Of a stretch of DNA of 64,000 nt, positions 20,922-33,021 are shown in pieces. The stretch is from a bacterium (GTDB taxonomy: Bacteria > J088 > JAWLBW01), in contig JAWLHK010000006.1 of the NCBI GenBank assembly GCA_041690355.1, forward strand, positions 1-64,000, written 5' to 3'. Under the pieces are notes generated by a model. It searched no databases. It was not told where the DNA came from and saw nothing but the letters and a program-made list of their open reading frames with translations. The number at the start of each line of letters is the position of its first letter. Within the stretch, counting starts at the first letter, position 1. A program made the position numbers and the translations under genes.

Positions 20922-21150
20922 GTTTCGTCAGGGCGCGGGTTGATCGGCGGACGCAATCGTGCCCCGTCGGGCCATCGCGTCCCACTTCAGCATGCGCGAT
21001 GCGGCGTCGTGGCCGCAGCCCCGGGCAGTGTCCCGGTTGCGGGCGGGCCGGCGAGCGTCGGGTTCGCGGCCCCGGTACGCTGCGTTTGTGCCCGCCCGCG
21101 GTGGAACGGATGATACACTGTGTTTCACCGTCACGTCGGAGTCGTCTGAA

Positions 21151-21972
21151 GTGGAAGCCTATGAAATCCGTCTGCGTGCCGCGTTGCGTGAGGCCGGCTC
21201 GGTGCTCGTGACCCTCTCCGGTGGAGTCGACAGCTCGCTGCTCGCGCGCATCGCCCATGAGGAGCTGGGCGAGCGTGCCGCCGCGCTCACGGCGGTCGGC
21301 GCTGCGCTCTCGGCGCGCGAGCTGGAAGACTGCCGGCGCATCGCCGCCGAGATCGGCATCCGTCATTTCGCCGTCGACTCGCGCGAAATCGACGATCCCG
21401 ACTACCGGGCCAATCCGGTCAACCGCTGCTACTTCTGCAAGACCGAGCTGTACGGGCTGGCTGCCGGCAAAGCCCGCGAGCTCGGCTTCGCGCGTCTGGC
21501 CGCGGGGATCAACCGCGACGACCTGGGTGACCACCGTCCCGGGATCGTCGCCGCCCGGGAGCACGACGTGCTCATGCCGTACGTCGAGGCGCGCATGGGC
21601 AAGCAGGAGATCCGCGCTGTCGCCCGCCGCATCGGGCTCAGCGTGGCCGAAAAGCCCGCCGCCGCCTGCCTGGCCAGCCGCATCCCTTACGGGCTCGGCG
21701 TCACCGAAGAGCGCCTGCGCCGCATCGAGCAGTGCGAGAACGTGCTCAAGGATCTCGGCTTCGCCCAGTGCCGGGTGCGCCTGCACGACAAGGTGGCGCG
21801 CATCGAAGTGCCTCCCGCCATGCTTCTGCACCTGCTCGAGCATCGGGAACGGATCGTCGAAAGTTTCCGCGGCGCCGGCTTCAGCTACGTGACGCTCGAT
21901 CTGGAGGGCTTTCGCAGCGGCAGCCTGAATGCCGGGCTCCCGCAGGCGGAGACCGGAATCCACCATGGCTGA
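21151..21972 (+). CDS. larE: LarE-family ATP-dependent (PP-loop) sulfur transferase
   Basis: [56 protein letters not shown] start at 21151. Confidence 0.85.
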   Translation: MEAYEIRLRAALREAGSVLVTLSGGVDSSLLARIAHEELGERAAALTAVGAALSARELEDCRRIAAEIGIRHFAVDSREIDDPDYRANPVNRCYFCKTELYGLAAGKARELGFARLAAGINRDDLGDHRPGIVAAREHDVLMPYVEARMGKQEIRAVARRIGLSVAEKPAAACLASRIPYGLGVTEERLRRIEQCENVLKDLGFAQCRVRLHDKVARIEVPPAMLLHLLEHRERIVESFRGAGFSYVTLDLEGFRSGSLNAGLPQAETGIHHG

Positions 21973-22171
21973 GCGCGATCGGCAGCCGGGGGGCGGCCCG
22001 CTGCCGTTTCCGACTTCGGCCTGTCACGGCTGCCGGCACATGGTGCTGGTGGGCAACCGGTGCGGTAGCCGCTTTCTGCAGTGCCGGGCGGCCGCGCAGT
22101 CGTTCTACCCGCCTCAGCCGGTGGGCGATTGCGCGTTGCGCTTGCCTGCATCCCCCTCGGGCGGCGGATAA
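21965..22171 (+). CDS. Small Cys-rich hypothetical protein (68 aa)
   Basis: ATG overlaps the larE stop; CHGCRH...GSRFLQC...YPPQPVGDC, 5 Cys. Confidence 0.6.
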   Translation: MAERDRQPGGGPLPFPTSACHGCRHMVLVGNRCGSRFLQCRAAAQSFYPPQPVGDCALRLPASPSGGG

Positions 22172-22572
22172 GCCCAGGTCTCGCGGAACCCGCCCAGGAA
22201 CTCCGCATCCTCCCAGAGCGGCTCGCCGTTCAGCGTGAGCCATGCATGCCCCGTAACCCCGTTGCGATCCGGTTTGACCCCCATGTGGAACCGGACGTTG
22301 AACCCGCGGCCGGTCAGGTGCAGAAAGCGCAGCAGCGACAGCTTCAGGCAGTTGCCCATGTTCAGGTAGGGGAGCTGATAGACCACCATTTCGGAGAGTC
22401 GCCGGATGCGTTCGGCATCGGTCCACCGCCGGGCATAGCGGCGCCCGGTCGGCGTCATGCGCGCCATGAGCCCGTCGAGGGGGGCGCGGTCGAACATCAC
22501 GCTCAGATAGACCAGCTCGCCCGCCATCCGGGCGACCGTGGGGAGATCGCGAACCACATGCATGCTTTTCAT
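22114..22572 (-). CDS. Lasso peptide B2-type leader peptidase (transglutaminase-like)
   Basis: GNCLKLSLL (catalytic Cys), FHMGV, GHAWL (catalytic His); ~150 aa; alternative start 22563. Confidence 0.87.
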   Translation of the reverse strand: MKSMHVVRDLPTVARMAGELVYLSVMFDRAPLDGLMARMTPTGRRYARRWTDAERIRRLSEMVVYQLPYLNMGNCLKLSLLRFLHLTGRGFNVRFHMGVKPDRNGVTGHAWLTLNGEPLWEDAEFLGGFRETWAYPPPEGDAGKRNAQSPTG

Positions 22573-22611
22573 CTTGCCGAATCCCGGGCGGATAGTCAAT
22601 TTGATAAGAGC

Positions 22612-22641
22612 TTGACGAATTGGAAAGCCGAGTGCCAGAAT
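22612..22641 (+). promoter_or_regulatory. Putative sigma70 promoter for the RRE-precursor unit
   Basis: TTGACG-N18-CAGAAT with TG extended -10, in an AT-richer divergent intergenic region. Confidence 0.45.
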
Positions 22642-22670
22642 GGGGATAGAAACCGAACGGGGAGGCCGGC

Positions 22671-22943
22671 ATGGGCTATCGCATCCATCCATCAGTGTTG
22701 TTCACCGATCTGGAAGACGGCACGAGCGTGCTGCTGCACATGGACAGCAAGTTCTATTTCACGCTGAACGAGTCGGGCACGGTCATCTGGCGCGCACTCA
22801 TGGAGCGTGAGGGTGCGACGGCCGAGGATCTCGCCCGCAGCCTCGCCGCCACCACGTTCAGTGTCGAAGAAGAAACGCTGCGGAACGACATCGACAGCAT
22901 GTTCCGCGAAATGGTCGGCGAAGATATCCTGGTTGAGGAGTGA
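22671..22943 (+). CDS. PqqD family RiPP recognition element (lasso B1-type)
   Basis: 90 aa; DGTSVLLHMDSKFYFTLNESGTVIW...EDL...F...DI...GEDIL pattern; GGAGG RBS. Confidence 0.9.
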   Translation: MGYRIHPSVLFTDLEDGTSVLLHMDSKFYFTLNESGTVIWRALMEREGATAEDLARSLAATTFSVEEETLRNDIDSMFREMVGEDILVEE

Positions 22944-22946
22944 GCC

Positions 22947-23084
22947 ATGGCGAAACGTAACTACAGTCAGCCGTCGTTCGCCCGGTACCGCCCCGTGCGC
23001 GACGTGACCCTGCTGACGCAGTGCTGCCCGTTCGATGAAGAGCCGGTCGATCCCAAGCGGGGCCACGCCGTCTTTTCGGGCTGA
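22947..23084 (+). CDS. RiPP precursor peptide with lasso-type leader (45 aa, absent from ORF track)
   Basis: Manual translation MAKRNYSQPSFARYRPVRDVTLLTQCCPFDEEPVDPKRGHAVFSG; GAGGAG RBS 6 nt upstream; YxxPxF and Thr at the lasso leader spacing; followed by a terminator. Confidence 0.85.
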   Translation: MAKRNYSQPSFARYRPVRDVTLLTQCCPFDEEPVDPKRGHAVFSG

Positions 23085-23108
23085 GCGCGCAGACATCGAT
23101 TGTTTGAG

Positions 23109-23148
23109 AGAGGCCCGCCGGTCATCCGGCGGGCCTCTTTTCTTTCTT
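23109..23148 (+). terminator. Rho-independent terminator after the precursor
   Basis: 13-bp perfect stem AGAGGCCCGCCGG/CCGGCGGGCCTCT, TCAT loop, T-rich tail. Confidence 0.88.
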
Positions 23149-23240
23149 CGGCGTGCCCTCGGGGAAACTGGATTTTTTCTCAATCATTGTGCTATGTTAT
23201 ACGGGGCCCGCCTGCCGCCCGCCCCGGATCCCGACCGCTT

Positions 23241-24977
23241 ATGAGCGACGACGCTTTCGACACCTCCGAACTCATCGACGATTTCGTCGACGACGCCCGC
23301 GTTCACCTGGGGCTTCTCGACGACGCGCTCCTGCGCTTCGAGGCCTCGGTCGAGGCCGGGCGCACCGACCGGAGCGTTTTCGCGAGCATCCTCGGCGCCC
23401 TGCACACGCTCAAGGGCAATGCCGGCATGATGGGCTTCGGCGGTATCCAGCACGCCGTGCACGAACTCGAGACGGTCATCAAGAAGATTACGTCCGAGGG
23501 CATTGCGGTCACCCGCGCCGGCGTCGACGCCCTCTTCGCCATTGCCGCGCTCCTGCACGGGGCCGTCGCCGGCCTTTCGGCCCAGCGGCATGAGACCGAA
23601 ACCTTCGCGCGCCTCGAGGGGCTGCTGGCCACCGTGATTGCGGGGGGCGACGCGGCCCCCGATGCGCCGGCCCCGGAAAGGCAGGGGAATGCTGCGCAGG
23701 GAAATGCCGCGCAGGGAAATGCCGCGCAGGTCGAGTCGGTGGCGGCTGAACCGGCGGTGGCCGAACCGGTCGGGCCGGCGGGGCTCGGGGGCGAGACGCA
23801 GACCATCAAAATCGATTTCAAACGTCTCGACCGGCTGCTGAATCTTGTCGGCGAGCTCGTCATGTACCGCACCTCGCTGAACCAGGTGCAGACCGACCTC
23901 GTGCACCGCGGCGCCGACCTCGTCGCCGGCCGCGAACTGAGCGACGTCTCGCAGCTCATCGGTAAGACGGTGACCGAGCTGCAGGAAGCCATCATGGAGG
24001 CCCGCCTGCTTCCGATGCGCACGGTGCTCCATCCGTTCCCCCGGCTGGTGCGCGACATCGCCCGCAAGCAGGGTAAGAAGGTGACCCTGCACCTGCGGGG
24101 CGCCGAAACCGAGCTCGACAAGACGGTCATCGACAAGATCGGCGAACCGCTGCTGCACCTGGTGCGCAATGCGGTCGATCACGGCATCGAGCTTCCCGAT
24201 CAGCGCCGGGGCGAGGGCAAGACCGAGACGGGCAACCTGACCATCTCGGCCGCGCAGGAGTCGAACAGCATCATCATCACCGTCGAAGACGACGGCCGCG
24301 GGCTCGACGCGAAGAAGATCCTCGAGAAGGCGCGCCGCATCGGCCTCGTCGACCACGACCGCAAGATGGCCGAACAGGAGATCTTCGAGCTCATTTTCTC
24401 GCCCGGCTTCAGCACCGCCGACCAGGTGACCGAAATCAGCGGACGCGGCGTGGGCATGGACGTCGTGCGCGCGGCCATCGCCGGCCTGGGCGGCGTCATC
24501 GAACTGGATACGATCGCCCATCTGGGCACGAAATTCACGGTCAAACTGCCCCTTACGCTGGCCATCATCACCGCCCTGCTCGTGCGCGTCGGCGAAGAGT
24601 CGTACGCCGTCCCCATCACCCATGTGCTCGAGAGCGTGCGCTACGACGCCGCTGCGGTGCACGAGGTCAACGATCGCCAGGTGCTGCGCCTTCGCGACCG
24701 CATCCTGCCGCTTGCCGATCTGCGCGCGCTGTTTCAGCTTCCCGAACGGGATGCGGGCGACCAGGCTTACGTCGTCGTGCTCGGGCGCGGCGAGCGGCGG
24801 GTCGGCCTCATCGTCGACGGCCTGCTCGGGCAGATGGAAATCGTCATCAAGGGCATCGACGAGGTCCTCGGCGCCACGCCGTACATCGCCGGTGCTTCGG
24901 TGCTCGGCGACGGGCGCGTCATTCTCATCGTCGACGTAGCCCGGCTGCTCGCCGGGGCCGACATGGTGGTGACCTGA
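23241..24977 (+). CDS. cheA: Chemotaxis histidine kinase CheA (no obvious P2 or REC domain)
   Basis: Hpt LHTLKG, LNLVGELV, HLVRNAVDHGIE, PGFSTA..SGRGVGMDVV, C-terminal CheW-like P5. Confidence 0.95.
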   Translation: MSDDAFDTSELIDDFVDDARVHLGLLDDALLRFEASVEAGRTDRSVFASILGALHTLKGNAGMMGFGGIQHAVHELETVIKKITSEGIAVTRAGVDALFAIAALLHGAVAGLSAQRHETETFARLEGLLATVIAGGDAAPDAPAPERQGNAAQGNAAQGNAAQVESVAAEPAVAEPVGPAGLGGETQTIKIDFKRLDRLLNLVGELVMYRTSLNQVQTDLVHRGADLVAGRELSDVSQLIGKTVTELQEAIMEARLLPMRTVLHPFPRLVRDIARKQGKKVTLHLRGAETELDKTVIDKIGEPLLHLVRNAVDHGIELPDQRRGEGKTETGNLTISAAQESNSIIITVEDDGRGLDAKKILEKARRIGLVDHDRKMAEQEIFELIFSPGFSTADQVTEISGRGVGMDVVRAAIAGLGGVIELDTIAHLGTKFTVKLPLTLAIITALLVRVGEESYAVPITHVLESVRYDAAAVHEVNDRQVLRLRDRILPLADLRALFQLPERDAGDQAYVVVLGRGERRVGLIVDGLLGQMEIVIKGIDEVLGATPYIAGASVLGDGRVILIVDVARLLAGADMVVT

Positions 24978-25780
24978 TGTACGAAGCGTTCTTCGGCCTG
25001 CGCGAAAAAGCGTTTTCCAAGACGCCCGATCCACGGTTTCTCTTTCTCTCCGAAGCCCACCAGGAGGCACTGGCGCAGCTCGAGTACGCCGTCGAAGAGA
25101 AGGAGATTGCCGTGCTGACCGGCGAGATCGGCACCGGCAAGACGCTGCTTTCGCGTGTGCTCATGGACCGCCTCGACGAGCGGTACGAGATCGCCAACGT
25201 GCTGCACCCGGGGCTGAGCACGACGGCCTTTCTGCGCACGGTCGCCCAGGAGCTCGGCGTCGGCGAGCCGGCGCGCACGAAGCAGGGGATCGTGGATCAG
25301 CTGCAGCAGCGCTTTCTCGCCCTGCACGACGAGGCGCGCACGCCGGTCATCCTCATCGACGAATCGCAGCTCATCCGCGGCAAGGACGTCTTCGACGAGA
25401 TCCGCCTGCTCACGAACTTCCAGCTCGACACCGAGAACCTGGTCGCCTTCGTGCTCATCGGCCAGCCCGAGCTCGCCAAACGCCTGCGCAAGCCGGCCTA
25501 CCGCCCGCTCACGCAGCGCATCGGGGCCGAATTTCACCTGGGGCCGCTCGATGGCGAGGCAACCTCGGGGTACCTGCGCCACCGCCTGCGCACGGCGGGC
25601 GCCGAACGCGACATTTTCGACGACGGAGCCTGCGCCGCCGTGCACGAGCGCACGGGCGGGACGCCGCGAATCGTCAACAACCTGGCTACCCAGTGCCTGC
25701 TCGAAGGTCTGGCGGCCGAAGAACCGGTCATCACGCGTCCGCTCGTGCAGCGGGTGGCCGACAGCATGCGGTTTCTCTGA
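24977..25780 (+). CDS. ExeA/GspA-family AAA ATPase (ATPase domain only)
   Basis: MYEAFFGLREKAFSKTPDPRF, Walker A GEIGTGKT, Walker B IDESQ, LIGQPEL, GGTPRIVN. Confidence 0.9.
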   Translation: MYEAFFGLREKAFSKTPDPRFLFLSEAHQEALAQLEYAVEEKEIAVLTGEIGTGKTLLSRVLMDRLDERYEIANVLHPGLSTTAFLRTVAQELGVGEPARTKQGIVDQLQQRFLALHDEARTPVILIDESQLIRGKDVFDEIRLLTNFQLDTENLVAFVLIGQPELAKRLRKPAYRPLTQRIGAEFHLGPLDGEATSGYLRHRLRTAGAERDIFDDGACAAVHERTGGTPRIVNNLATQCLLEGLAAEEPVITRPLVQRVADSMRFL

Positions 25781-26877
25781 TGGGCCGGCTGAGCGAAGCG
25801 CGAAAGAAGGCCAGGGCGAAGAAGGGGGGCAATGACGGCGAAACGCCTGTGACGCCTGGCGCCGACGCGCCTGCGCCGTCTTCCGCCGAAAGCGTCGTTC
25901 CCGCATCCGTCTCCGCGCCGGCCGCCCCGTCCCCGGAACCCGAGTCGGCTGCCTCCGCTCCCGAGCCCGATGTGCACCAGGCCGACGACGAGGCTGCCTG
26001 GATCGCCAGAGCGCTGGCCGAAGCCGAGGCCGAAATCGGCGGCGCCCCCGCCGTGGCCGAGGCCGCCGAAGGGAAATCCGACGGACGCATCGTGCTGCCC
26101 GCCAGCGGGCTGGCCGACGACATCCTCGCCGCGTGGAGCGCCGAACAGGACGAAAGCGATACGGGGGCAGGCGCGGCCGTTTCTCCGGCGGCCGGCGAAG
26201 AATCCTTTTCCTTCGACGACGTTTTCGACGACGCGGCCGGCCTGCAGGGGTCGGTGCTCGAAGCGCTGCGCGAAGAAGCGGCCCCCGGGGCGCTGCGCTC
26301 GATGCCGAGCAGCGGTCTGGCCGAAGACATCCTGCAGTACGTCGACGCCAAGCCGGCGCAGCGTTCGTCGCTGAGCCTCGACGAGATTCACGAATTCGAA
26401 AACTTCTTCGAAGACGAACAGCAGACCGAGTTCGCCCAGTACGTGCTGTTCTCCATCGGCCGCGAAACCTTCGGCGTCGACATCGCGCATGTCCGGGAGA
26501 TCATCCGCGCGCCGCGCATCACCCGCGTTCCCAACGCCGACCGGGCCGTGACCGGCGTCTTCAACCTGCGCGGCCGCATCGTGCCCCTGTTCGTGCTGCG
26601 CAGCCTGCTGAACCTGCCGTCGCGCGCGCTCGATCGCGACAGCAGGGTCATGGTCTTCGAGTCGGGCGCCCGCCATGTGGGCATGCTCATCGACGGCGTA
26701 CGCGAAGTCGCGCGCGTCGACGTGCGCGACATCGAACCGCCGCCCGAAGAAATCACGAGCGCCGTCGACCGCAATCTGGTCACGGCGGTCGCCCGGTACC
26801 GAGACCGGGTGATCTTTCTGCTCGACATGGATTCCGTTCTCGGATTCAATCGCCCCCCCATGAGTCACGCGAGGTAG
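25780..26877 (+). CDS. cheW: CheW with long acidic/low-complexity N-terminal extension
   Basis: C-terminal [40 protein letters not shown] coupling to the upstream gene. Confidence 0.88.
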
Positions 26878-26879
26878 CC

Positions 26880-28808
26880 GTGAAGCTTCGAAACAAGATG
26901 CCCTTGTATACCTTCATCACGGTCATGGCCGTCGGCATTGTGCTGGCCATCGCCGTGCGGATTATCGCGCACGACAAGCTGTACGAAGAAGCCCGCGGCA
27001 AGGCGACGGCCCTCTCGGGAGCCCTGGCCTACAACGCCCGGTACGGACTGCTCACGCAGGATTCAGTCATCCTCTCGGACCTGATGCGCGGGGTCATCTC
27101 GGTGCAGGAGATCGAGTTCTCGCTCTTCGCCGATGCCGAGGGCAAGGTGCTCGCGCGGCAGCTCGAACCCGGGGTCGAACTCGACGAGGCGGCGGTGCTG
27201 CAGGGACTCGCGGGGAGCGGGGAGACGTCACGCATCGAAATCGACTCGCACCTCATCGTGCGCACCCCCGTGTTCAGCGAGGTTTACGATCCGTTCGCCG
27301 AGAACATGCAGGGCGGCGTCGATGCCGACGCCCCGAAGAAACCGATCGGCTACGCCGTCGTGGGTATCACGCTGGCCGGCGTCGCCGAGCGGGTCGGTTC
27401 CATGATGACGCTCATCCTGCTCATCGTCGCGGCCTCGGCCGTCGTCTTCGCGGCCTTCCAGAGCTACCTGGCCCGCCGGGAGCTGCTCCCCCTCGACGAT
27501 ATGGAACTGGCCGCCTCGCGCATCGCCGACGGTGACTTCACGGCGCGCGTGAATGTGAGCGGCAACGATGAAATCGGCCGTCTGGGCGACATCTTCAACC
27601 GCATGGCCATGAGTCTCGAGAACATCGTCGGCAGCGTGCAGACGACCTCCGACAAGGTCGCCGCCGAAGCCGAACGCATCAGCCGGGCGGCCCGCGACGT
27701 GCTGCAGGGATCGAAGGTGCAGGCCCAGGCTTCGGAAGAGACCAGCAGCTCGATGGAAGAAATCGCGGTCCAGATCATTACCGTCGCCGGCAACGCCGAG
27801 CGCCTGAGCGCCAACGTGGGCGACACCTCGAGCTCCATCGAAGAGATGGGGGCGAGCATCGAGCAGATCTCGAGGAACACGGACCTGCTCGCGCGCAGCG
27901 TCGAGGTCGCCAGCAGCACCGTCGAAGAGATGCTCGGCAGCATCAACGAGGTCGCGACGAACGTCGAAGAAGCCGAAAAGACCAGCGGTCGGGCGGCCGA
28001 AGAGGCCGCCGTCAGCGGAAACTCGGTCCTGCGCACGGTCGAGCGCATGCGCAAGATCGCCGGCACGATGGAAGGGACGGCCGGCGTCATTCAGACGCTG
28101 GGCGAGCGCGGGGGCGAGATTGAGAAGATCATCGGCGTCATCGAAGACATCGCCGACCAGACCAATCTGCTGGCCCTGAACGCGGCCATCGAAGCTGCGC
28201 GCGCCGGTGACGCCGGGCGCGGGTTCGCGGTCGTCGCCGACGAGGTGCGCAAACTGGCCGAGCGGTCGGTGGCGGCCACCAAGGAGATCGGGCGCGTCAT
28301 CAGCGAGGTCGTGCGCGACACCGAGAAGGCCGTGCTCGCCTCGCGCGAGGGGGTCGAAGAGACCAAGGCCGGCATCCGCATCGCAGACGAGGCCGTGGCC
28401 GCCATCGAGCGCATCCGCGAGAGCGTCGACGGCACGTCGCGCATCATGCGCGAGATACTCGTCGCCACGCAGGCCCAGCGCGACGCGAGCAAGCACGTCA
28501 CCTCGGCCATGATGGACATGAACCGCATCACCGGCGAAGTCCGGGCGGCGACGGCCGAGCAGGCCCGCGGTTCGGCCCAGATCGTACGCTCGGTCGAGGA
28601 GATGCGCCAGCAGACCGACGAAGTCAAGATGGCGACCGAAGAGCAGAAGCGCGGCGGCGAAATGGTCGTCGCTGCCATCGAGAACATCTCGGCCATCGCC
28701 CGCGACAACCTGCGCGCCATGGAAGAGATGAACACGATCGCCTCGGGCCTCACCGAAGAGAGCGAGAACCTGCGCAACTTCCTGCAGACGCTGCGGGCCA
28801 AGGGCTGA
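26880..28808 (+). CDS. Methyl-accepting chemotaxis protein
   Basis: Two TM helices, HAMP (DEIGRLG..FNRM), [38 protein letters not shown] start. Confidence 0.95.
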
Positions 28809-28827
28809 GCGGGCGGGGAGCGCGTAC

Positions 28828-31080
28828 GTGGCCGTTATGGAATCCGATCCGCGGGATGAAGCCGCCCGCTGCCGGGATGCAGAGGCGCTTGCCGGCCGGC
28901 AGGACGACGAGGCGTTCAACCTGCTGCTCGACGCCGCGCGCGACGAGTCGTGGCGCGTGCGCGAGCGCGCCGTGCGTCTGCTGACGGCTTTTCCGGCACG
29001 GCGGCTCGTCGCCTGCGTGCGCGACACGGTGACGGGTACGCGGGAGCCTTCGCTGCGCAACGTGGCCATGGACGCCCTGGTGCGCCAGGGTGAAGGATCC
29101 GTCGCCGAGGTCGTGACCCTGCTCGCCGAAGAAAACTGGGAGATGCGGCTGCACGGCGCCGTCATGCTGGGTAACATCCGCTCGCCGCTCGCCATCGACG
29201 CGCTCTGCCGGCTGCTCGGCGACGAAGAAGAGAACGTCATTCATGCCGCCGCGGAGTCGCTGGGCGAAATTGGCGATCCGCGGGCGGTTATTCCCCTCAC
29301 CGAGGTGCTGAGCTCGCATGAGTTCTGGTCGCAGTATCCGGCCATCGTGGCCCTGGGCAAGATCGCCCATCACAGCTCGACCGAGCATCTGCTCGCCTAT
29401 CTGAATGACGAGATGCTTGCGCCGGCGGTCGTCGACGCGCTCGGACGGGTAGCCGATCCGCGCGCGCTCACGCCGCTGCTGCAATTGCTTCCCGCCGACG
29501 ATGCGCCCCCCTTTGTTCCGTACCCGCAGCTGATTCGCGCTCTGGTGCGCATCACGGCCGTGGCCGGCGAAAGCTGGACGCTCGCCGATGCCCTGCGCGC
29601 CCCGATGCGCAGAGCGGTGCGCGAGGCGCTGCGCGGCGAAGAGGCCGAGGATCGCATCGCGGCGCTGCTCGTCGCCGGCTGGACGGCCGATGCGGAACTG
29701 ATTCCCGACATGCTGCCGTCGCTCGAGCACGACGGTGAACAGGACGCGGCGGCTCGCGCCCTCTCGGGCATGGGCGAGGCCATCGTGCCCGCCCTCGAGC
29801 CGCTGCTTTCGGCGCCCCTCGCGTCGGTGCGCCGGCTCGCCGTGCAGCTGCTGTCTGCCGCCGGCCATGTGGAGCCGATTCTGCGCCTCATCATCGACCC
29901 CGACGAGGCCGTGCGCATGGAAATCGCGCTGGCGGTCGGCAACAGCGGCCGGGCCGAACTGAGCGAGTACGTGCTCGAGATGCTGCTCGACGAAAGCGAC
30001 GAAGTGCGCAGTGTGGCGCTCGAGGTCATCGCGCGCTTTCAGAGCGACGACCGGGTGCGCGAACAGCTCTATCATCGTCTCGAATACTTTCCCGACGACC
30101 ACCTGCCGACCATTGTCGAGACGCTCGGCCGCCTTGCCGTCGCCGACGCGCTGCCGCGCCTCGAACCGCTGCTGGGCGTCGAGCGTGATCCCGCCGTGCG
30201 CGCGGCCGCGGTGCGGGCGGTGAGCGCCATCGGCGCGGCGGGTGATAAGGCGGCGGCGGCGCGCGACGCCCTCCTGCCGCTGGCCGGCGACGCCGACCCC
30301 GATGTGCGCTACGAGGTGCTGCGCGCGCTCGATCGCTTTCAGGGCGAGGCGGTTTTTGCCGCACTCAGCCGCGGTATCGACGACCCCGAACTTCACTGCG
30401 CCTACGCCGCCGTCAGCGCGCTCGGCCACGTCGGCGACGAACGGGCCGCGCCGCTGCTCGAACGCGCCGCCCTGCGGGCCGACGCCGACATGGGGCTGCG
30501 CGTTGCGGCCGTGGGGGCGCTCGGGCGCATTCAGGCCGAAAGCTCCACCTCTGCGCTGCTCGATCTGCTGGCCGTCGATGACGCCGACGTGCGCCGCGAA
30601 GTGACGCGGGCGCTCAGCCGCATTCCCGGACCCCGGGCGCTCGATGGGCTGCGGCGGGCGGCGGCCGATCCGTTCTGGGGGGTTCGTGCGCTGGCCATCC
30701 GCGCGCTCGCGTCGCGGGGCGAGGCCGGGCGCGAACTGGTGCTCGCCGCCCTGAGCGACGAGGATTCTCTGGTTCGCAAGGCGGGCGTGCGCGGATTGCA
30801 GGAGGCTGGCCTCGCGGCCGTCGATCGACTCATCCCGCTGCTCAGCGACGACGATCTGGAAGAAACGGTGGCCGACACGCTGGCGACCTTCGGGCCGGCC
30901 CTGCTCGAGCGCATCGGCGAGGCGGGCGCCCAGGCAGATCCGGTGGTGCGCATCCGGCTCGCCCGGCTTCTCGGGCGCATCGGGGGCGAGAAGGCCCGCC
31001 GCCAGCTCGATGGATTGTCGCGCGACGCCGTCGCCGAAGTGGCTGCCGTGGCCCAGCGCGAACTGGCGGGAGAAGGCTGA
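28828..31080 (+). CDS. HEAT-repeat (PBS lyase-like) protein
   Basis: Many repeats of D....VR..A..ALG.IGD.RA...L..L across ~750 aa. Confidence 0.9.
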   Translation: MAVMESDPRDEAARCRDAEALAGRQDDEAFNLLLDAARDESWRVRERAVRLLTAFPARRLVACVRDTVTGTREPSLRNVAMDALVRQGEGSVAEVVTLLAEENWEMRLHGAVMLGNIRSPLAIDALCRLLGDEEENVIHAAAESLGEIGDPRAVIPLTEVLSSHEFWSQYPAIVALGKIAHHSSTEHLLAYLNDEMLAPAVVDALGRVADPRALTPLLQLLPADDAPPFVPYPQLIRALVRITAVAGESWTLADALRAPMRRAVREALRGEEAEDRIAALLVAGWTADAELIPDMLPSLEHDGEQDAAARALSGMGEAIVPALEPLLSAPLASVRRLAVQLLSAAGHVEPILRLIIDPDEAVRMEIALAVGNSGRAELSEYVLEMLLDESDEVRSVALEVIARFQSDDRVREQLYHRLEYFPDDHLPTIVETLGRLAVADALPRLEPLLGVERDPAVRAAAVRAVSAIGAAGDKAAAARDALLPLAGDADPDVRYEVLRALDRFQGEAVFAALSRGIDDPELHCAYAAVSALGHVGDERAAPLLERAALRADADMGLRVAAVGALGRIQAESSTSALLDLLAVDDADVRREVTRALSRIPGPRALDGLRRAAADPFWGVRALAIRALASRGEAGRELVLAALSDEDSLVRKAGVRGLQEAGLAAVDRLIPLLSDDDLEETVADTLATFGPALLERIGEAGAQADPVVRIRLARLLGRIGGEKARRQLDGLSRDAVAEVAAVAQRELAGEG

Positions 31081-31081
31081 G

Positions 31082-31933
31082 ATGTATTATTACCCGTCTA
31101 CCCGCGAACTGCCGATGACCGAGGAGGAGTTCCGCCTCCTGCGCGACTTTGTGCGCCAGCAGTTCGGCCTGTTCTATGACGATTCGAAGCTGCAGCTGTT
31201 CAAGAACCGGCTGCTCCCGCGGGTCGCCGCGCTCGGTCTGACGACCTTCGACGAATACTACCACTACCTCCGCTTCAATCCCGGCCGCGCCGAAGAGATG
31301 CGCAAGATGGTCAGCCACCTGACCAACAACGAGACTTACTTCTTCCGCGAGATGAAGCAGCTCGAACTGTTCCGCGACCAGCTGCTCCCCACCGTGGCCG
31401 CCCGCCGCAAGGGTACCATCCGGGTGCTGAGCGCGGGCTGCTCGAGCGGCGAAGAGCCGTATACGCTGGCCATGCTGGCGCACGAGAAGCTCGGGCTCTT
31501 CCCCCGCAGCCGCGTCGAGATCGTCGGCATCGACGTCGACGACAAGGTGCTCGAAAAGGCGCGTCTGGGGCAGTACTTCAAGTCAAGCTTCCGCGCGACC
31601 GACCCACTGGTGATCCACCGCTACTTCCAGGCCCAGGGCGAGGCCCGCGTCGTGCGTGAGTCCATCCGCAGCAGCGTGCGGTTCGAGTGGGCGAACCTGG
31701 TCGACTTCTCGACGCTGCGCGGCCTGGGGCAGTTCGACATCGTTCTCTGCCGCAACGTCATCATCTACTTCGAGGATCCGACCATACGCAAGGTGGTCGA
31801 AGGGTTCTACCGGCTGCTGGCCGAAGACGGCTACCTGCTGCTGGGACACTCCGAATCGCTTGCGCGCATCACCGATCTCTTCGAGGCAGAGCGCCACCCC
31901 GGAACGTTCGCCTACCGCAAGGTGCTGCTGTGA
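31082..31933 (+). CDS. cheR: Chemotaxis methyltransferase CheR
   Basis: TNNETYFFRE, SAGCSSGEEPY, CRNVIIYF, GHSE. Confidence 0.95.
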   Translation: MYYYPSTRELPMTEEEFRLLRDFVRQQFGLFYDDSKLQLFKNRLLPRVAALGLTTFDEYYHYLRFNPGRAEEMRKMVSHLTNNETYFFREMKQLELFRDQLLPTVAARRKGTIRVLSAGCSSGEEPYTLAMLAHEKLGLFPRSRVEIVGIDVDDKVLEKARLGQYFKSSFRATDPLVIHRYFQAQGEARVVRESIRSSVRFEWANLVDFSTLRGLGQFDIVLCRNVIIYFEDPTIRKVVEGFYRLLAEDGYLLLGHSESLARITDLFEAERHPGTFAYRKVLL

Positions 31934-33021
31934 ACCCGGTGCGCGTGCTCATCGTCGACGATTCGGCCTTCATGCGCAAGGCAATCCGGCGCATGCTCGA
32001 GGCCGACCCCGAGATCGAGGTCGTCGGCGTGGCCCGCGACGGCGCCGAAGGGGTGCGCCTGGCCCGCGAGCTCGTGCCCGACCTGATCACGCTCGATTTT
32101 CAGATGCCCGACATGAACGGCCTTCGGGTCATCGAAGAGATTCTGGCCTGGCGCTCGATACCCATTCTGATGCTCTCGTCGTTCACGGCCGAGGGCTCTG
32201 AGGTCACTCTGCGTGCCTTCGAGCTGGGCGCGCTCGACTACATTGACAAGTCGAGCGTCAAGACGCAGATGGACATCGTCAACATCGCGCCGATGCTGCG
32301 CACGAAGGTGAAGACCCTGGCCGGCATCGGCCACGAGAAGCTGGCGCGCGCCCGCGTGGCCGCCGTGCCGCAGGCTCCGCCGCCGCCGTTCGAGGCGTTC
32401 GAGGCGTCGGTGGGCGAGGGGACGTCGGCCTACGATCTGGTCGCCATCGGCTCGTCGACGGGGGGCCCGTCGGCGTTGCAGGCGATTCTGGCGGGGCTCC
32501 CGCGCGGGTTTCCGTGCCCGATCGTCATCGTGCAGCACATGCCGGCGGGGTTTACCGGACCGCTGGCCGATCGGCTGAACTCCATCTGCGAGATCCGGGT
32601 GCGCGAAGGGGCCAACGGCGACGAGCTGGCTCCGGGCACGGCCTACATCGCCCCGGCCGGCTCGCACGTGCTCATCGCCCGTCGCGGCAACGGCCTGCAG
32701 ATGCTGCTCAGCCAGAAGCCCGAAGACGCGCTGCACCGGCCGAGCGTCGATGTCCTGTTCGCGAGCGTGGCCCGTACCGTGGGCGCGGCGGCGGTCGGTG
32801 TCCTGCTCACGGGCATGGGCAAGGACGGCGCCCTCGGTCTGAAGACGCTGCGCGATCGCGGCGCCGCGACCATTGCCCAGGACGAAACCACGAGCGTCGT
32901 CTGGGGCATGCCCCGGGTCGCCGTCGAAATCGGGGCGGCGCGCGAAGTGCTCCCGCTCGGCGACATACGCGGACGCATTCTCGCCCTGGCGCGCGAACGG
33001 CGGACCGCGCCTGCTCACTGA
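31930..33021 (+). CDS. cheB: Chemotaxis methylesterase CheB (REC plus esterase)
   Basis: VLIVDDSAFMR, GSSTGGP, QHMP, RPSVD, LTGMGKDGA. Confidence 0.96.
   Translation: MNPVRVLIVDDSAFMRKAIRRMLEADPEIEVVGVARDGAEGVRLARELVPDLITLDFQMPDMNGLRVIEEILAWRSIPILMLSSFTAEGSEVTLRAFELGALDYIDKSSVKTQMDIVNIAPMLRTKVKTLAGIGHEKLARARVAAVPQAPPPPFEAFEASVGEGTSAYDLVAIGSSTGGPSALQAILAGLPRGFPCPIVIVQHMPAGFTGPLADRLNSICEIRVREGANGDELAPGTAYIAPAGSHVLIARRGNGLQMLLSQKPEDALHRPSVDVLFASVARTVGAAAVGVLLTGMGKDGALGLKTLRDRGAATIAQDETTSVVWGMPRVAVEIGAAREVLPLGDIRGRILALARERRTAPAH

Follow-up and report, generated by a model that had tools for sequence, protein, structure and literature searches.

A lasso-type precursor, recognition element and putative leader peptidase in a bacterial genome without a recognised lasso cyclase

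Some lasso-type pathways decorate their peptides with phosphate. In pseudomycoidin, the HprK-like protein PsmK phosphorylates the C-terminal Ser of the precursor, and PsmN, an uncharacterised NTP transferase, is needed for the hexose on that phosphate, according to the accessible part of the report (PMC6993621). The subject here is a small bacterial locus that resembles these pathways but has no lasso cyclase. It consists of a precursor peptide gene, a gene for a PqqD-family recognition element and a gene for a B2-type Cys peptidase. It lies on contig JAWLHK010000006.1, in a stretch of 64,000 nucleotides (G000:C6:1-64000) that is called the window below. The source genome is rated 100% complete, in 42 contigs.

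Kinase genes in lasso clusters are not new. An anaerobe survey, as far as its accessible text goes, places HPr kinase and sulfotransferase genes in such clusters (PMC4289311). Recognition elements of peptides that are ribosomally made and modified after translation (RiPPs), known as RiPP recognition elements (RREs), have also been catalogued. In the accessible part of the RRE-Finder paper, the discrete lasso RRE model hits approximately 8,000 proteins, of which just some 4,000 co-occur with a peptidase and a cyclase, and around 300 co-occur with radical S-adenosylmethionine (SAM) enzymes (PMC7470986).

The window locus appears to be one half, with precursor, RRE and peptidase, of a split, two-locus RiPP system that works without a cyclase, and whose product is not a lasso peptide. 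This is the reading to which the sequence comparisons make us lean. An operon on another contig, C28, is the likely partner in trans; it encodes an HprK-like protein, a radical SAM enzyme without an RRE and an NTP_transf_5 protein. What ties it to the window locus is that genomes of other phyla have these genes clustered with PqqD, B2 and a Cys-bearing precursor.

There is also a wider proposal, a serious possibility that falls a little short of probable. It holds that a separate class of RiPPs, present in several phyla, combines a lasso-type leader, a B1 RRE and a B2 peptidase. In this class the macrolactam synthetase would be replaced by a radical SAM(-SPASM) enzyme, an HprK-like protein and an NTP_transf_5 protein. 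Here, a single RRE would serve an unlinked locus, and the product would be a cross-linked, phospho-decorated 23-mer. A Leu23-Asp30 lactam, formed with no asparagine-synthetase homologue involved, may also be part of the product.

The window locus

The locus has these features, in window coordinates:

22114..22572, minus strand: B2-type transglutaminase-like Cys peptidase, a putative leader peptidase (PF13471, NF033537, conserved residues)
22573..22670, no strand: divergent intergenic region of 98 nucleotides (nt), with a promoter-like site and a TTGAC box per strand
22671..22943, plus strand: discrete PqqD-family RRE of B1 type, 90 amino acids (aa) (PF05402)
22947..23084, plus strand: precursor peptide, 45 aa (conservation, codon pattern, leader motif)
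23106..23151, plus strand: intrinsic terminator of the PqqD-precursor operon (16-pair stem with 11 G-C pairs, 4-nt loop, T-rich tail)

An initial annotation of the window, made from the letters alone, had described most of this: a B2 peptidase with Cys and HAW motifs, divergent from a PqqD/RRE gene, which is followed after 3 nt by a 45-codon open reading frame (ORF) with its own ribosome-binding site and a strong terminator. That description holds up. Both proteins are present where they were placed and match Pfam families, and the Cys and HAW residues of B2 are invariant among its relatives. The precursor ATG (22947) comes 3 nt past the PqqD stop codon, which ends at 22943. The Shine-Dalgarno sequence GAGGAG lies 6 nt upstream of this ATG, and the terminator with its 16-pair stem is found as well, at 23106-23141.

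The precursor ORF has no family matches in Pfam or NCBIfam. Homologues were sought among 5.8 billion proteins, and the family found there has three members: the window peptide, that of G001 (the single same-family genome), and P0161, a metagenome protein of 44 aa. The three are 73-77% identical. A metagenome scan with an alignment of two of the peptides delivered 167 pattern matches and no relatives. The contig of P0161 measures 1,661 base pairs (bp), and the same size is recorded for the contig of P0003, a relative of the B2 peptidase. This suggests that the P0161 precursor and the P0003 B2 are on one contig.

The comparison with G001 extends over 43 aligned codons. No difference is seen in 18 of them, 15 have a synonymous change and 10 a non-synonymous one; by codon position, 21 differences are at the third and 9 at the first two together. 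Because two relatives retain it with mostly synonymous change, the ORF is judged to be a real peptide gene, and the codon pattern indicates that it is under purifying selection.

Residues 1-22 of the precursor are the leader, in which Tyr6, Pro9, Phe11 and Thr21 stand out. The predicted core is residues 23-45. It starts at Leu23 and has Thr24 at position 2, a Cys26-Cys27 pair, Asp30 at position 8 and Ser44 as its last residue but one. With this start, the four leader residues fall at -17, -14, -12 and -2, which we take to be the spacing of lasso leaders. The earlier prediction of cleavage past Thr21-Leu22 agrees with it.

Tyr6, Pro9, Asp19 and Thr21 are invariant, and Arg18 almost so, in 11 aligned precursors from 10 loci; the cores of these are wholly different. 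A lasso-leader pattern was also run on the 92,372 six-frame ORFs of the genome. In its loose form it matches 65 times, and in its strict form once, which is the precursor ORF. A hidden Markov model (HMM) of the leader, run over the genome, gives no second precursor.

The longest reading of the B2 ORF is 22114..22692 on the minus strand, and this version would overlap the start of PqqD. Relatives start level with its second or third Met, and the start is thus probably the ATG at 22572 or at 22563, for a protein of 152 aa. Pfam Transglut_core3 (PF13471) matches it at 1.8e-11 (44.4 bits, above the cut-off of 26), and the NCBIfam lasso B2 model NF033537 reaches 31.4 bits, slightly below its cut-off of 33. 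Cys75, Gly98, His109 and Trp111 (the last two forming the 'HAW' motif) are invariant in all 49 aligned B2 relatives, and Glu121 is almost so.

The AlphaFold model of the peptidase has a predicted local distance difference test (pLDDT) score of 92.5. Foldseek with this model returns nothing at E <= 0.001, all matches having E >= 0.16. Fold matches are weak and mainly to transglutaminase-fold proteases (best VIA-align Z 5.4). Against the sequences of solved structures, the B2 profile finds nothing relevant, the best match being ribosomal protein L9 (E 0.096). The gene is the sole B2 copy in the genome. A Transglut_core protein of 492 aa on C14 was considered as a second copy and rejected as a general transglutaminase-core protein. 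The B2 of G001 is 59% identical to that of the window. A metagenome scan with the B2 alignment produced 49 loci at 27-52% identity, none of them in the close subfamily.

The RRE protein matches Pfam PqqD (PF05402) at 6.3e-14, and is similarly the sole copy in the genome. Two NCBIfam lasso PqqD models both stay below their cut-offs (45.5 versus 70, and 27.5 versus 80). The closest solved chain is the lasso B1 protein TbiB1 (1.7e-5). A promoter-like TTGACG-N18-CAGAAT at 22612-22641 would serve the PqqD-precursor operon. The divergent region also contains a GTCAA/TTGAC pair, present in G001 too, which is presumably a pair of back-to-back -35 boxes. An operator shared by both promoter regions was considered and dropped, with such boxes as the simplest account of these words.

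The missing cyclase and the candidate partner operon

The window has 42 called ORFs, of housekeeping and chemotaxis type. Among the 42 there is no gene for an Asn_synthase, an ABC exporter, a radical SAM enzyme or a kinase-like RiPP protein, as the initial annotation had observed. A neighbouring LarE protein matches Asn_synthase in its PP-loop only.

Genome-wide, Asn_synthase has five matches. Just two of these are full length, in tandem on C4. With 447.6 and 392.8 bits, both exceed the cut-off of 267 set for true AsnB, and both stay well under that of the lasso cyclase model NF033535 (245.5 and 169.1 bits versus 525). They retain their glutamine-amidotransferase (GATase) domains. They also sit in a polysaccharide/O-antigen locus, with sugar epimerase and dehydrogenase genes and those for a group 1 glycosyltransferase and a Wzy_C protein as neighbours. 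The C4 synthases were dropped as cyclase candidates on these grounds. By these searches, the genome as well as the window is without a lasso cyclase. A split lasso pathway with its cyclase in trans, one of two options in the initial annotation, thus finds no footing here.

As a separate observation, the C4 region (G000:C4:164862-179588) also holds a second NTP_transf_5 gene, and the tandem synthase pair is present in G001.

The candidate partner is the C28 operon, G000:C28:39381-42353, which has three overlapping genes and is the one such operon in the genome:

G000:C28:39381-40418: HprK-like P-loop protein, 345 aa (P-loop and Asp-Asp pair in the translation)
G000:C28:40415-41386: radical SAM enzyme, 323 aa (CxxxCxxC motif)
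G000:C28:41376-42353: NTP_transf_5 nucleotidyltransferase-fold protein, 325 aa (family match)

The radical SAM protein begins at its CxxxCxxC motif, and its Cys-rich tail has five C-terminal Cys. Given this start it lacks an RRE. Among named families it comes closest to ScmF, MftC and PqqE, peptide maturases that depend on an RRE, with every score below cut-off; against named models it scores 76.8 of 400 (ScmF), 35.8 of 400 (ScmE) and 51.6 of 625 (StsB). ScmC-family members are among the Atlas look-alikes of the HprK-like protein. As to sactipeptides and ranthipeptides, where a radical SAM-SPASM maturase acts on Cys donors in the core, the core here has Cys26-Cys27 and the C28 enzyme CxxxCxxC; SPASM matches occur in its homologues in genomes G125 and G085 and not in the C28 protein. 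There is no exporter gene beside the window locus or beside the C28 operon.

The tie between the two loci comes from other genomes. A scan with the B2 alignment over species-representative genomes delivered 23 loci. In G001 the order is CheA, small ORF, PqqD, B2, a four-Cys ORF and LarE. This genome is split as well, with precursor, PqqD and B2 on C191 and the three-gene operon on C380, where the HprK-like protein is 62% identical. G014 is likewise split: PqqD, B2 and NTP_transf_5 are on one contig, HprK-like and radical SAM on another. Both genomes have a single PqqD, and in both it adjoins B2.

Elsewhere, the genes are together. All eight Nitrospira-titled loci have PqqD, between one and five precursor-like small ORFs, HprK-like, NTP_transf_5 and B2, without a cyclase. 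Four of the eight were searched with Pfam, and all eight with the HMMs built in this analysis. The exporter ORF was scanned in two, and in both an ABC exporter lies 3' of B2. G125 has, on one strand, PqqD, a B2-like gene, a radical SAM-SPASM gene, a precursor and HprK-like; the leader HMM finds this precursor at 1e-7, and its core contains two Cys. In G085, B2 and HprK-like adjoin a pair of PqqD and radical SAM-SPASM. A methyltransferase is also present there, and a candidate precursor with two Cys lies 3' of the radical SAM gene. G022 has HprK-like, radical SAM, one intervening gene and B2. G051 has PqqD, HprK-like, radical SAM and a B2 fragment at the contig end; its sequence right upstream of PqqD (L062, G051:C86, around 2690-2990) consists of N, which would hide any precursor encoded there.

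Co-occurrence was also counted in 150 other genomes, which were searched whole. B2 is found in 10, HprK-like in 11, both in 7 and neither in 136, with a one-sided Fisher p of 1.2e-7 for genomes that come from different families and are not fully independent. The second option of the initial annotation, an undescribed RiPP class with the leader-removal module alone locally, is supported by these results: the C28 genes are putative trans partners, and they are clustered with PqqD, B2 and a precursor elsewhere.

Two observations on the related loci stand by themselves. Nitrospira-titled locus L016 (4700-16000) contains a pair of PqqD/HprK-like modules together with an ATP-grasp (RimK-like) gene, and its five precursor-like ORFs fall into two leader subtypes. 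There is also a clade of B2-like proteins (L078, L080-L082, L092, L093, L096, L102, L104, L106), with a value of 99 in the Shimodaira-Hasegawa-like approximate likelihood ratio test (SH-aLRT). PqqD, cyclase and HprK-like were not detected near these in loci long enough to judge.

If the two loci do act together, the pathway could run as follows. PqqD would bind the Tyr6-x-x-Pro9 part of the leader and present the peptide to the radical SAM enzyme, which would cross-link or otherwise modify the Cys26-Cys27 region. PqqD would also hand the peptide to the HprK-like protein, for phosphorylation of a core Ser or Thr (Thr24 or Ser44). The NTP_transf_5 protein might then extend that phosphate with a further group, a step modelled on PsmK and PsmN of pseudomycoidin. 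Finally, B2 would cleave past Leu22, with Thr21 as the -2 mark, and so free the modified 23-mer.

Weighing the readings

Several findings weigh against the split, cyclase-less reading. The window and C28 loci are unlinked, and would be at least approximately 34 kb apart even if C28 abutted C6; their joint action is something we only infer. Pfam SPASM does not match the C28 radical SAM protein at E <= 1. The C28 HprK-like protein is below all curated cut-offs (Pfam Hpr_kinase_C 21 versus 33.3; HprK_rel_A, TIGR04352, 36.6 versus 200). The B2-like gene of G125 has no Pfam match. Asn synthase homologues are found in five of five other genomes examined, on contigs other than those of the clusters.

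The peptide adds to this list. Core position 8 is acidic in all three close peptides (Asp30 in the window, Glu in both relatives), and a lasso macrolactam would need just this pairing of an acid here with Thr at -2. An HMM of leaders from Nitrospira-type peptides alone, made without the window and G001 peptides, misses the window peptide among 111,141 ORFs at a threshold of E <= 20, so the likeness of the leaders is at the motif level. With the same model, canonical lasso leaders from Chloroflexota-type loci, which have identical spacing, score E 1.8-4.7. By its motif, then, the window leader signals lasso-type recognition and not that of the cyclase-less type.

The B2 tree points the same way. 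It is a quick maximum-likelihood tree of 71 rows, 19 of them on contigs too short for classification; G125, whose match spans too small a part of the profile, is omitted. A separate long branch of length 2.44 unites the window and G001. Its sister is the clade of cyclase-bearing loci (SH-aLRT 89, not starred), and it lies outside the cyclase-less clade. The rows of Nitrospira, G022, G014 and G085 make up another clade (SH-aLRT 92).

Such points bear on the other explanations. One is that PqqD and B2 are a stand-alone leader-removal module, which would bind and cut only, leaving a 23-mer that is unmodified or disulfide-bonded, with C28 acting elsewhere. We consider this unlikely, even if precursor, PqqD and B2 are the only linked genes here and in G001, the third relative's precursor may share its 1,661-bp contig with P0003 on the evidence of the matching sizes, and the core is highly conserved within the subfamily, as a signalling peptide would be. 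The C28 radical SAM enzyme, lacking an RRE, would then have neither a PqqD partner nor a precursor in the genome, and the strong co-occurrence of B2 and HprK-like across genomes speaks against it too. To our knowledge, B1/B2 pairs in known systems work beside modifying enzymes. A true lasso peptide is less probable still. Here the bond from Leu23 to Asp30 would be made by a cyclase in trans, either a C4 asparagine synthase or a non-homologous enzyme that uses ATP. The canonical leader with Thr at -2 and the acid at core position 8 in three of three peptides fit this, as does the setting of the nearest B2 relatives beyond the subfamily (31-41% identity), which sit in canonical PqqD-B2-cyclase lasso clusters; in 12 of 13 Chloroflexota-titled loci, PqqD, B2 and Asn synthase follow one another as is canonical for lasso clusters. 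Lasso pathways can also do without expected parts, as the accessible part of the pseudomycoidin report indicates (PMC6993621). Conversely, the C4 synthases are of AsnB type, have kept their GATase domains and stand among polysaccharide genes, and the cores of related cyclase-less clusters have no acid at positions 7-9. The core begins with Leu in all three close peptides, and so without a small residue (Gly, Ala, Ser or Cys). The lasso peptides we know of begin with one of these four.

Another account is decay: the locus would be what is left of a kinase-decorated lasso cluster once its cyclase was gone, with its genes on their way out. The initial annotation had already raised decay from a complete canonical cluster. 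In favour of this account, 38 of the 71 tree rows come from cyclase loci, 25 of these 38 also carry an HprK-like gene, and the window B2 is slightly below its NCBIfam cut-off. Of the earlier suspicion, the part about relatives stands, in that the nearest outside B2 relatives are in canonical clusters. Against the part about decay speaks the conservation of an intact locus in three lineages: the three genes are intact with catalytic residues retained, the precursor is under purifying selection by its codon pattern, the arrangement is retained in G001 with its 59% identical B2, and the precursor is found in the third lineage too. Decay is therefore improbable. Finally, the peptide might be acted on by the neighbouring PP-loop ATPase of LarE type (20959-21972), possibly together with the four-Cys ORF; the ATPase would adenylate a carboxylate, as a minimal cyclase or a thio-modifying enzyme. 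The order LarE, four-Cys ORF, B2, PqqD, precursor is retained in G001, and the PP-loop is common to LarE and Asn_synthase. The synteny of two genomes from one family is weak evidence however, and the protein is a full LarE equivalog, the single LarE in a genome with LarC elsewhere, which fits a housekeeping cofactor role. There is also no LarE near B2/PqqD in any other locus scanned. This role is very hard to credit, and LarE was dropped as a partner enzyme and treated as an unrelated neighbour, for its equivalog match and its absence at the other loci. The split two-locus system with C28 as partner remains the preferred reading.

The genes next to the locus are these:

20959-21972: LarE (302 bits versus a cut-off of 150; sole LarE in the genome)
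21965-22171, plus strand: small ORF of 68 aa with four Cys (conserved in G001, phmmer 3e-12; no Pfam match)

The four-Cys ORF comes after LarE; B2 is convergent with it, and the two overlap by 58 nt at the 3' end of B2. LarC is at G000:C7:173572-174861, and the LarA N-terminal domain was not found in the genome, so the nickel-pincer cofactor genes appear without their usual racemase family. On the other side, directly past the terminator, is a chemotaxis cluster (23240-33021) with CheA, an AAA_22 ATPase, a methyl-accepting chemotaxis protein (MCP), a HEAT-repeat protein and CheB. For an AAA_22 ATPase, the place between CheA and the MCP is unusual.

Comparison with known systems

Lasso-type B1/B2 pairs and leaders are usually taken as lasso markers. 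Here they are under selection in a genome without a cyclase, and gene co-occurrence ties them to a set of radical SAM, HprK-like and nucleotidyltransferase genes. If this tie is true, it would define a new product class, and it would be a natural case of one RRE serving the enzymes of an unlinked locus. It would also be a warning that cluster-based mining misses split pathways. In addition, it would account for some of the many lasso-type RREs now discarded as mining false positives, going by the accessible text of the RRE-Finder paper (PMC7470986).

Set beside lasso clusters in general, the locus has the leader motif, the PqqD/B1-type RRE, the B2 triad and an acid at core positions 7-9. It lacks the cyclase and a small first core residue. 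The likeness to pathways of the paeninodin/pseudomycoidin type goes further: these too have a discrete PqqD/B1, a B2 Cys peptidase and a leader with Tyr at -17, Pro at -14, a hydrophobic residue at -12 and Thr at -2. They similarly have HprK-like P-loop and NTP_transf_5 proteins, which here are elsewhere in the genome; the accessible part of the pseudomycoidin report is the source for these (PMC6993621). Unlike that type, the window genome has no macrolactam synthetase, its tailoring genes are on another contig and its core starts with Leu. C28 also has a radical SAM gene between the kinase-like and transferase genes.

The Nitrospira clusters use the same gene families, with the precursor directly 3' of PqqD, the invariant Tyr, Pro, Asp and Thr in the leader, and no cyclase. 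They differ from the window in being contiguous, in having no radical SAM gene by HMM, in their ABC exporter (in the two checked), in their hypervariable cores and in their separate B2 clade. We know of no description of these cyclase-less PqqD/precursor/HprK-like/NTP_transf_5/B2/ABC clusters.

The SynChlorMet cassette combines an HprK-like protein (ScmC), a PqqD-like protein (ScmD) and two radical SAM-SPASM enzymes (ScmE and ScmF). Its gene names are those of the NCBIfam tables. The combination of HprK-like, PqqD-like and peptide-type radical SAM is found here as well, and among named models ScmF gives the top match to the C28 radical SAM enzyme. The proteins are however far below the equivalog cut-offs (ScmF 76.8 versus 400, ScmE 35.8 versus 400, ScmC 15.8 versus 125, ScmD 14.8 versus 100), and the system here also has B2 and NTP_transf_5.

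In the literature, no description was found of a cyclase-less PqqD/B2/HprK-like/radical SAM cluster, although subscription papers or supplements may have one. The closest published remark is in the RRE-Finder paper, which in its accessible part treats such proteins as false positives of the model and describes no cluster (PMC7470986). Unlike the proteins of that remark, as far as the accessible text goes, the RRE of the window also comes with a B2 peptidase and a lasso-type leader (PMC7470986).

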